From assembly GCA_045863235.1 (NCBI GenBank), contig BTUM01000055.1, positions 1-53,013 of the forward strand: DNA of 53,013 nt, written 5' to 3'. The DNA comes from Candidatus Xenobia bacterium. Its GTDB lineage: Bacteria > Vulcanimicrobiota > Xenobia > Xenobiales > QWHO01. Under the pieces are notes generated by a model, which was not told the DNA's origin, searched no databases, and saw only the letters and a list, made by a program, of their open reading frames with translations. Made by a program: the position numbers and the translations under genes. Positions 12,901 through 14,013 of the stretch are shown in pieces; the first letter of the stretch is position 1; every line of letters starts with the position of its first letter.

Positions 12901-13014
12901 GTGAAGCCTTACGAGCCACCCGTCATCGAGGTCTTCGAGCTGCCGGAAGAGCTCTCGCTGCAAGAGTGGGAGCGGTTGTTCCAATCGCCCGACAAGCCCT
13001 ATGCAGCCGGCTGA
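12901..13014 (+). CDS. Putative RiPP precursor peptide (37 aa)
   Basis: GTG-started MKPYEPPVIEVFELPEELSLQEWERLFQSPDKPYAAG; YxxP leader motif; overlaps the next gene by 14 bp. Confidence 0.6.
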   Translation: MKPYEPPVIEVFELPEELSLQEWERLFQSPDKPYAAG

Positions 13015-13738
13015 CGTCACCATCGTGGGCTTCGGCCCCGGGCAGTGGAGCAAGCTCACGCTCGAGGTCCACGACCTCTTGCTGCAGGCCGACCGCATCT
13101 ACACCCGCGACCCGCTCAGCTGGGAGGTGCTGCGCGAGCTCAAGGCCCGGGGCAAGAACGTGATCAGCCTCAGCTCGCTGTATCTGCTGGGCCTGCCGGT
13201 GGGCGAGATCTACGACCTGATGGCCGACGTGGTCGCCAAGAGCGCCCTGCGCTACGGGCCGCTGGTTTACGCCCTGCCCGGCAATCCGCTCGTATTCGAG
13301 TTTCCAACCTTGCTGGTGCGCCGTCGAGCTCTGGCCCTGGGCCTGAGCTGCACCATCGTGGAAGGCATGAGCTGCCTGGAAGCCATGTTCGTGGCCAACA
13401 ACATCGACCCCGGCTTTGGGCTGCAGATCCTCAATCTGGTCGACTTCGAGGCAAAGCCCCGCCTGATTGCCTCGGTGGCCACCCTGATGTTTCAGGTAGG
13501 CGCCCCCCGCCACGTCTTCGCCGATCAGAGCGAGCCCGATCGCTGCAACCTGTCCTGGCTGCGCGACCGCCTGATCGAGCTCGACTATCCGCCCGAGCAC
13601 AAGGTCTACCTGCTCAAGCCAGGCGAGGCCGGACAGCAGATCAGCGTGGTGGGCAAGGTTTCCCGCATGGAGCGGCTGAGGCCTCACCTCAACTCGATGT
13701 GCACGCTCTACATCCCGCCCAACTGGATCGTCACCTGA
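13001..13738 (+). CDS. Tetrapyrrole-methylase-fold SAM methyltransferase (borosin-NMT/YabN-N-like)
   Basis: IVGFGPG...LTLE...ADRIY, YALPGNPLVFE, EGMSCLE...IDPGFGLQ. No MazG domain. Confidence 0.8.
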   Translation: MQPADVTIVGFGPGQWSKLTLEVHDLLLQADRIYTRDPLSWEVLRELKARGKNVISLSSLYLLGLPVGEIYDLMADVVAKSALRYGPLVYALPGNPLVFEFPTLLVRRRALALGLSCTIVEGMSCLEAMFVANNIDPGFGLQILNLVDFEAKPRLIASVATLMFQVGAPRHVFADQSEPDRCNLSWLRDRLIELDYPPEHKVYLLKPGEAGQQISVVGKVSRMERLRPHLNSMCTLYIPPNWIVT

Positions 13739-14013
13739 TGACCTACCGGCACAACCCTCACACAGCCTGGCATGCCATCGGCCGGCGAGTGGTGCTGGTA
13801 CCCCTCGAGCGCAGGGATGGGGTGCACAACAACACCCTGGTGCTCTCCGGCTCGGCGCCCGCTCTCTGGCTGCTGCTGCAAGAGCCCCGGAGCGCCGAGG
13901 AGCTGGTGGCGCATCTTCAGTCGGAGTATGAGGTGGACCGCGAGCGGGCAGGCCAGGATGTGGAGCGCTTTCTGGAGCGGCTGCTGGAGTGGAAGGCCCT
14001 GGACTCACGCTGA
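13738..14013 (+). CDS. PqqD family protein / RiPP recognition element (RRE)
   Basis: LSGSAPALWLLLQEPRSAEELVAHLQSEYEVDRERAGQDVERFLERL pattern; TGATG overlap with the methyltransferase stop. Confidence 0.88.
   Translation: MTYRHNPHTAWHAIGRRVVLVPLERRDGVHNNTLVLSGSAPALWLLLQEPRSAEELVAHLQSEYEVDRERAGQDVERFLERLLEWKALDSR

Follow-up and report, generated by a model that had tools for sequence, protein, structure and literature searches.

The described systems closest to the locus analyzed here are the borosins, the YabN-MazG fusion proteins, and the lasso peptide systems with a discrete RRE. The methyltransferases of the split borosins (type IV, represented by SonM/SonA of Shewanella oneidensis) and the fungal OphMA, dbOphMA, and MroMA are the nearest solved structures to the enzyme of this locus by sequence and by fold. 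The likeness includes a tyrosine pair, an FQVG-type motif, and the positions of an aromatic lock, and the split borosins also have a stand-alone enzyme encoded beside a separate peptide gene. In SonM, the R67A mutant is inactive and Y93 helps bind SAM (available part of PMC8429565). A borosin survey lists, in the part available, types based on the borosin binding domain (BBD), BBD-less systems of the Legionellales, and 733 enzymes without a precursor; an RRE is not mentioned in that part (10.1101/2024.01.09.574750).

The N-terminal methylase domain of YabN (part of a YabN-MazG fusion; NF052436, CDD cd11723) is a second relative of the enzyme. A literature search surfaced no function for YabN-like methylases. 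The YabN-side methylases form the outgroup to the borosins in the accessible portion of Imani et al. (10.1101/2021.12.24.474128).

The third group consists of the lasso B1/RRE systems (TbiB1, FusB1/TfuB1, PbaB1) and the LPP system (LppB), which have a discrete RRE with a Tyr-binding Asp and a central Phe, a YxxPx[LVI] leader motif, and a Ser or Thr some 15 residues beyond the Tyr of that motif. The leader is gripped in LppB by D70, through a hydrogen bond to the Tyr; by F74 and V35, which enclose the Pro between them; and by N33, which sets the kink (PMC13381572, in part). The RRE-Finder preprint, as far as its text was available, set aside 1,050 methyltransferase matches as false positives. 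Backbone N-methylation of a RiPP by a non-borosin enzyme has been described for EreM of the pythonamide pathway of Ca. Eudoremicrobium (available part of PMC11285071). EreM, which is FkbM-like and encoded in a proteusin cluster, has a fold and an architecture unrelated to those of the cassette considered here. Ca. Eudoremicrobium presumably belongs to the same phylum as the host of that cassette.

The cassette lies in a stretch of 53,013 nucleotides (the window), positions 1 to 53,013 of contig BTUM01000055.1 of a Candidatus Xenobia bacterium (GCA_045863235.1; genome of 8.36 Mb, 97.6% complete). It consists of three small genes encoding a putative precursor peptide, a methylase, and an RRE.

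Layout and conservation of the three-gene unit

The unit and its flanks comprise the following features.

11674 to 12843, minus strand: pyruvate kinase, left flank, outside the unit; not beside the cassette at the distant locus L009
12844 to 12900: 57-bp spacer from the first ATG of the divergent pyruvate kinase gene to the GTG of the peptide gene; presumed promoter region
12901 to 13014, plus strand: open reading frame of a putative precursor peptide of 37 residues with a GTG start; no Pfam or NCBIfam family
13001 to 13738, plus strand: methylase of 245 residues, a stand-alone tetrapyrrole-methylase-fold (class III) SAM methyltransferase; PF00590
13738 to 14013, plus strand: discrete PqqD/RRE protein of 91 residues; PF05402
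14029 to 15378, minus strand: HEAT-repeat protein, right flank, outside the unit; other genes occupy this place at the same-genus loci L007 and L008

The layout given in a preliminary description of this DNA is borne out by the sequence: three co-oriented reading frames, a 14-bp overlap of the peptide and methylase genes, a TGATG junction between the methylase and RRE genes, and opposite-strand genes on both sides (pyruvate kinase on the left and the HEAT-repeat gene on the right, both on the minus strand). The methylase matches Pfam family PF00590 (TP_methylase) with 51.5 bits (cut-off 27.8) and the RRE protein matches PF05402 (PqqD) with 55.3 bits (cut-off 23.4). No MazG domain was found on the methylase reading frame in the Pfam scan, so that its description as a tetrapyrrole-methylase-fold enzyme without MazG was correct. 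So was the statement that the unit contains no lasso cyclase, peptidase, or transporter. A B2 peptidase and an Asn-synthetase-like cyclase are absent from the unit and its flanks in the window and at L007, L008, and L009, and the unit has no kinase, signal-type peptidase, or ring-forming lasso-type core, all of which sets it apart from the lasso and LPP systems.

A clear Shine-Dalgarno site at normal spacing was not found before the peptide GTG. One sigma-70-like match lies at 12813-12840 and is in itself no sign of function. The RNA contigs from the 4 runs examined, out of 21 listed, gave no usable sign of transcription of the cassette. In run X1 coverage is about equally low (about 3-6) over the cassette, spacer, and flanks, as would be the case with carried-over DNA. 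In run X6 the contigs of a relative flank the spacer, with starts at 12884 and ends at 12833, which is a hint at most (one study, depth about 5). The high RNA-contig depth at 11530-11678 is due to a dispersed repeat. This repeat is about 150 bp long, partly palindromic, and MITE-like; the host genome has 20 or more long copies of it (79-97% identity) and genome G046 has many, and it has no Rfam match. Elsewhere in the window, at 16493-20624, a run of minus-strand genes resembles the menaquinone genes of the futalosine pathway (methyltransferase, radical SAM, and prenyltransferase genes, labels read from translations).

An orthologue of the methylase occurs in 4 of the 44 genomes of the class (G000, which is the host, G046, G104, and G110). 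The RRE subfamily is found at E<1e-36 in the same four genomes, with weak generic PqqD matches in five others. Matches to the peptide at E<1e-16 are confined to these four as well, eight others having matches at E 0.007-0.1; the search profiles were built from these loci, and the informative part is that the other 40 genomes have no matches of such strength. Methylase orthologues without RRE and peptide genes, which the preliminary description had named as evidence against its reading, were looked for and not found; the three genes are adjacent in all four orthologue-bearing genomes. Three of the four belong to one genus, so the unit is known from two independent lineages. The distant lineage (L009, identical in sequence to L027) has the same gene order and unrelated flanks; its enzyme is 48% identical to that of the window and its RRE 40%, and its peptide is a 43-residue reading frame with the motif YQPPKV that overlaps the start of the enzyme gene. 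Three more pairs of enzyme and partner are encoded on contigs of equal size (P0007/P0188, 3209; P0011/P0176, 2174; P0006/P0177, 14652), a coincidence that is circumstantial.

The cassette is accessory, since in G054, a genome of the same genus that is 97% complete, the interval from pyk to the next shared gene is filled by other genes. Across the genus, what lies between pyk and an anmK-like gene (window 12844-15378; L007, L008, L071, L077) varies: depending on the genome, it is the HEAT gene, a set of unrelated genes, or a pair resembling a toxin-antitoxin system (labels read from translations).

An RRE gene beside the methylase gene is found in the four orthologue genomes and is mostly lacking beside the more distant stand-alone homologues. 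Among sister stand-alone enzymes, an RRE adjoins 1 of 13 distinct loci, several of them on short contigs. None of 26 borosin-like loci (about 1.5 kb on each side) and not the one YabN locus has an adjoining RRE. Two of these 26 loci come from genomes marked unpublished (G232 and G344) and are used in the residue counts given below and not in the 90-row tree. A stand-alone enzyme of this kind (L105-L112) is present in 8 of the 13 genomes of a small phylum, in a housekeeping context, with no fused MazG and no adjacent RRE. The 12 sister loci without an RRE and these housekeeping-like genes indicate that the enzyme group can work without an RRE or a peptide. Linkage to an RRE thus characterizes the clade to which the window's enzyme belongs, together with at least one sister locus, and does not extend to the group as a whole.

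That sister locus is a lasso cluster (L022:38-4551) with genes for a kinase, an RRE, a B2 protein, a cyclase, a WxxP precursor, and a nucleotidyltransferase; a stand-alone YabN-like methylase is encoded between its RRE and B2 genes and is a candidate undescribed lasso tailoring enzyme. At L023 a sister enzyme is encoded beside a PRMT-like gene resembling one in the lasso cluster of the host genome. Borosin-like methyltransferases with Arg and YGHP (L028-L053) occur in 27 of the phylum's 401 genomes, all 27 belonging to two other families; 26 loci were retrieved. Viral contigs contained no orthologue of the methylase and one partial match at 27% identity. Six plasmid records match the enzyme at 23-29% identity, two of them annotated as mazG, and the ESM Atlas returned generic PF00590 and PF05402 clusters only.

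Relationship of the methylase to borosins and YabN

The residues that the preliminary description picked out in the enzyme stand up to alignment with dbOphMA: Y61 and Y71 correspond to the borosin tyrosine pair, V67 occupies the place of the Arg, and PGNP that of YGHP. The OphMA numbers used there (66, 72, 76, and 98) are matched in part by the titles of PDB mutant entries. Across the 15 members of the enzyme's clade, Y61, Y71, N95, F99, E100, and F164 are invariant, as are the Gly-rich loop, the GNP loop, and G122/S124, and Q165 is kept in 13. No member has Arg at position 67, and the YGHP-equivalent motif is PGNP in 12 and AGNP in 3, which places Pro or Ala at the SAM-binding Tyr position. 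The enzyme therefore differs from borosins in having no catalytic Arg, PGNP for YGHP, and an invariant Glu100.

What these residues mean is different from what had been proposed. A set of 197 aligned domains (168 database proteins plus the fetched loci, minus duplicates and those shorter than 190 residues) includes 38 MazG-fused YabN domains, with L014 counted among them by its long tail. In these 38 fusions the two tyrosines are present in 36 and 37, Arg in none, Pro at the YGHP Tyr position in all 38, and Glu at position 100 in 37; the YGHP Tyr position holds Tyr in 70 of 81 Arg-bearing homologues. The tyrosine pair is consequently no mark of a borosin. The view of the enzyme as borosin-like with altered residues has to be given up as well, since YabN fusions and the window's clade share the pattern, and the supposedly altered features are ordinary ones of the YabN-side sister group. 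The enzyme shows the features of the broad YabN-N-like group: a Tyr pair without Arg, PGxP, Glu100, and grouping with YabN domains. It differs from YabN in having no MazG, in forming a separate clade linked to an RRE and a peptide, and in keeping F99 and F164. F99, F164, and Q165 match the aromatic lock of SonM (F99/W166/Q167), whereas aromatic residues occur at the two lock sites in none of the 38 YabN fusions; the lock positions were located by way of the dbOphMA alignment and from the Trp-Gln that borosin-like rows have there.

The predicted structure of the enzyme (pLDDT 87) matches SonM with Z 23.4 and an rmsd of 2.4 over 229 aligned residues, and the best tetrapyrrole methylase, a uroporphyrinogen methylase, with Z 18.2. 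A profile of the clade searched against the PDB likewise found borosins best (E 4e-20; next family 5e-9); these PDB lists contain no YabN structure, so "closest solved" overstates the kinship to borosins. The best NCBIfam match is the YabN family NF052436 (E 2e-22; 79.8 bits, compared with a cut-off of 525 set for the full-length protein). The methylase fold spans the enzyme end to end, and the 37-residue peptide is too short for a five-helix borosin binding domain. The unit thus has, in place of that domain, a discrete RRE and a YxxP-type leader.

Phylogeny also separates the enzyme from borosins. The tree sample comprised 90 of 192 domains: all 10 unclassified ones, 10 of the clade, 24 stand-alone enzymes, a random 20 YabN domains, and a random 26 Arg-bearing domains. 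In the careful IQ-TREE run a branch with support 100/96 splits 35 borosin-side rows from 55 others that include the window's clade; the tree has no outgroup, no characterized borosin, and several long branches, and its borosin-like rows were defined by motif. The window's clade has support 100/98 and YabN 100/100, and both lie on the same side of this deepest split; their order with respect to the other stand-alone enzymes is unresolved in the tree. Forcing the clade together with 30 core borosin-like rows was rejected in an AU test against the careful tree (p=0.0004) and not against a quick tree (p=0.34), which is 60 log units worse than the careful one. As judged from sequence, the enzyme is a non-borosin methyltransferase with a clade of its own on the YabN side, sister to the borosins.

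Two other assignments were rejected. A role in cobalamin or siroheme synthesis is out, as the host genome contains only one other PF00590 gene, which reads as RsmI-like, and no set of corrin or siroheme methylases. The enzyme is also not half of a split YabN; MazG is encoded on other contigs of the genome.

The peptide and the RRE

The reading frame of the peptide is open back to 12619 in the window. In two same-genus genomes a TGA immediately precedes the GTG, which fixes the extent of the gene at 37 codons. Relative to L007, the 33 peptide codons outside the methylase overlap differ by 7 synonymous and 2 conservative changes, and relative to L008 by 6 and 1. None of these changes is at codon position 2; GC3 in the frame is 0.81. 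The peptide is under coding constraint and purifying selection. Within the genus it is as conserved as the enzyme and more conserved than the RRE.

Residues 4-9 of the peptide form the motif YEPPVI, a putative RRE-binding motif. Further features are a conserved Glu13, a conserved Asp31, a Ser or Thr at Tyr+15/16, and an amphipathic helix predicted from the residue pattern at about residues 18-28. The two peptide types have in common YxPPx[IV] and, more broadly, the Tyr, the PP pair, a hydrophobic residue, Glu at Tyr+9, Ser/Thr at Tyr+15/16, a Leu, and an Asp. Taken as a whole, the two are not significantly similar (the score is reached by 1,187 of 20,000 shuffles), and with their different tails they have no core in common. 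Among 116,241 reading frames of the host genome, with the motif placed 20-45 residues before the stop, YxPPx[VIL] occurs in 16 and YxxPx[VIL] in 166. The Ser/Thr at Tyr+15 parallels the leader Thr (also Tyr+15) of the genome's own lasso precursor, a match that would make residues 21-37 the core. A Ser or Thr at this place would suit a helix cap just as well. The host genome showed no further copy of the peptide, and a wider search yielded 2 sequences only, from 2 candidates. A 398-residue "representative" of the peptide's cluster, considered as a possible fusion, is an unrelated protein and a clustering artifact.

The RRE model (pLDDT 90.6) has three strands followed by three helices, the order that defines RREs (PMC12710340, in the part available). 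Its nearest solved structures are lasso B1 proteins and LppB (TbiB1, PbaB1, LppB, and TfuB1). D74, F78, L82, and L36 align with D70, F74, M78, and L32 of LppB, which are residues of the YxxP pocket, and D74 and F78 are invariant in 8 of 8 sequences. The equivalent of LppB N33 is S37; Ser, Lys, or Asp stands there across relatives, and Asp in TbiB1. The RRE is likely to bind the leader motif, as predicted from the kept YxxP pocket. The earlier identification of a YxxP-type leader with a stand-alone RRE is thereby supported, since the motif is of the lasso type and the pocket with its Tyr-binding Asp is kept.

Proposed function and alternatives

The evidence leans, by a modest degree, toward RRE-guided methylation of the peptide by a minimal RRE-dependent RiPP-type cassette. 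A minimal pathway of this kind had been proposed before; what survives of the proposal is the conserved, self-contained unit of peptide, methylase, and RRE, and what falls is the argument from an altered borosin. In the manner of lasso B1 proteins, the RRE would very probably take up Y4-x-x-P7-x-I9 as an extra beta strand. Given such binding, it would probably replace the borosin binding domain and present the C-terminal half of the peptide (about residues 20-37) to the enzyme. The Y61/Y71 pair would clamp the substrate backbone, and SAM would give one or a few methyl groups. The single likeliest chemistry is backbone amide N-methylation, which is itself doubtful; side-chain methylation (the carboxylate of Glu13 or Asp31, or Lys/Arg32) would be nearly as likely. 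The invariant Glu100 may do the work of the missing Arg network, a role as a base being a guess. Because there is no dedicated peptidase or exporter, the product would probably be the methylated peptide, whole or trimmed by the host, and would act within the cell. More tentatively, the cassette may be the founding member of a RiPP class of its own, with a discrete lasso-type RRE in the role of the borosin binding domain and with methylation of the peptide by a sister enzyme that has the Glu and lacks the Arg.

Several observations count against RRE-guided methylation. The Arg that is essential in SonM is absent from all 15 clade members, the SAM-binding Tyr is replaced by Pro or Ala, and the tyrosine pair is common to YabN fusions. 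Where LppB uses an Asn to hold the leader Pro, the RRE has another residue, and DNA context is available from two independent lineages only. The sister loci and housekeeping-like genes without an RRE, the insignificant overall similarity of the two peptide types with their differing tails, and the absence of a peptidase and a transporter from the unit weigh on the same side.

It is rather unlikely, though worth weighing, that the peptide is instead a structural or regulatory subunit, and that it and the RRE dock on, stabilize, or activate a methyltransferase acting on another protein or a metabolite. Beyond the leader motif a helix-like pattern is kept rather than a variable core, and the degree of conservation within the genus, equal to that of the enzyme and above that of the RRE, would suit a subunit. 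The lack of a peptidase or exporter and the existence of related stand-alone enzymes without any peptide point the same way. However, the discrete RRE-YxxP pairs that have been solved structurally are devices for precursor delivery, and the spacing of the Ser/Thr matches that in the lasso precursor of the same genome.

The cassette might also be a fragment of a lasso cluster whose enzyme and RRE tailor a lasso precursor in trans, the peptide being a degenerate precursor or a decoy. This is improbable. The RRE is nearest to lasso B1 proteins, sister enzymes stand in the lasso cluster of L022 and beside the PRMT-like gene of L023, and the same genome has, on contig C46, a full lasso cluster with a YxxPxL precursor. 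Yet a short lasso-B2-like frame was found in only one of the four cassette genomes, the host; the other three (90, 64, and 82% complete) gave matches in 500-residue frames only or none. All three genes are moreover intact, the peptide is under selection, and the putative leader is followed by Gln or Glu rather than by the start of a lasso ring.

Equally small is the probability that the enzyme has no catalytic activity or serves as a scaffold that senses SAM/SAH, the three proteins together making up a regulatory complex without enzymatic function. The enzyme lacks the Arg and Tyr on which SonM depends, and the literature search gave no activity for the YabN-type domain, but the Gly-rich loop, GNP loop, G122/S124, and tyrosines are invariant, the tyrosines being kept across YabN fusions as well, which is what a functional active site built from other residues would show. 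Chance juxtaposition, in which the small reading frame is no gene and the adjacency of RRE and methylase is incidental, is very improbable: a weak ribosome-binding site, the low overall similarity of the two peptide types, and the mere two lineages fit it, whereas the synonymous bias and GC3 of the peptide frame, a gene order and overlap kept in a different family with different flanks, and a motif background of about 1 in 700 to 1 in 7,000 frames speak against it.

The architecture is real and rare, and is probably an undescribed variant of RRE-dependent RiPP logic with an uncharacterized enzyme branch. The literature search found no description of a borosin- or YabN-type methylase combined with an RRE, and the cassette could still sit in supplementary datasets; one supplementary file of PMC12710340 contained no match to it. 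The available parts of PMC11395268 and PMC11285071 contain no occurrence of an RRE.

The cassette provides a small, soluble, and genetically linked candidate substrate for an enzyme of the YabN-like branch. RRE-guided methylation, if true, would join RRE/YxxP recognition to borosin-fold methylation, two RiPP logics not found combined in the literature searched. It would bear on backbone amide methylation without the conserved Arg and would offer an engineerable, portable methyltransferase directed by a short leader tag. It would also be the first activity for the YabN-like branch, and the widespread YabN domain may then methylate a peptide or protein through the same tyrosine clamp. The reach of these points is limited by the rarity of the cassette and by the fact that the modification may be an ordinary side-chain methylation.

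The host genome has other RiPP-like loci. Its lasso cluster (L060:5319-11976, contig C46) encodes an ABC-like protein, an RRE, a B2 protein, a cyclase, a 55-residue YxxPxL precursor, a kinase-like protein, and a PRMT-like methyltransferase. On contig C38 (L061:3503-6496) a PqqD gene lies between an ATP-grasp gene and a urea-transporter/M23 fusion gene, which may form another RiPP-like locus.
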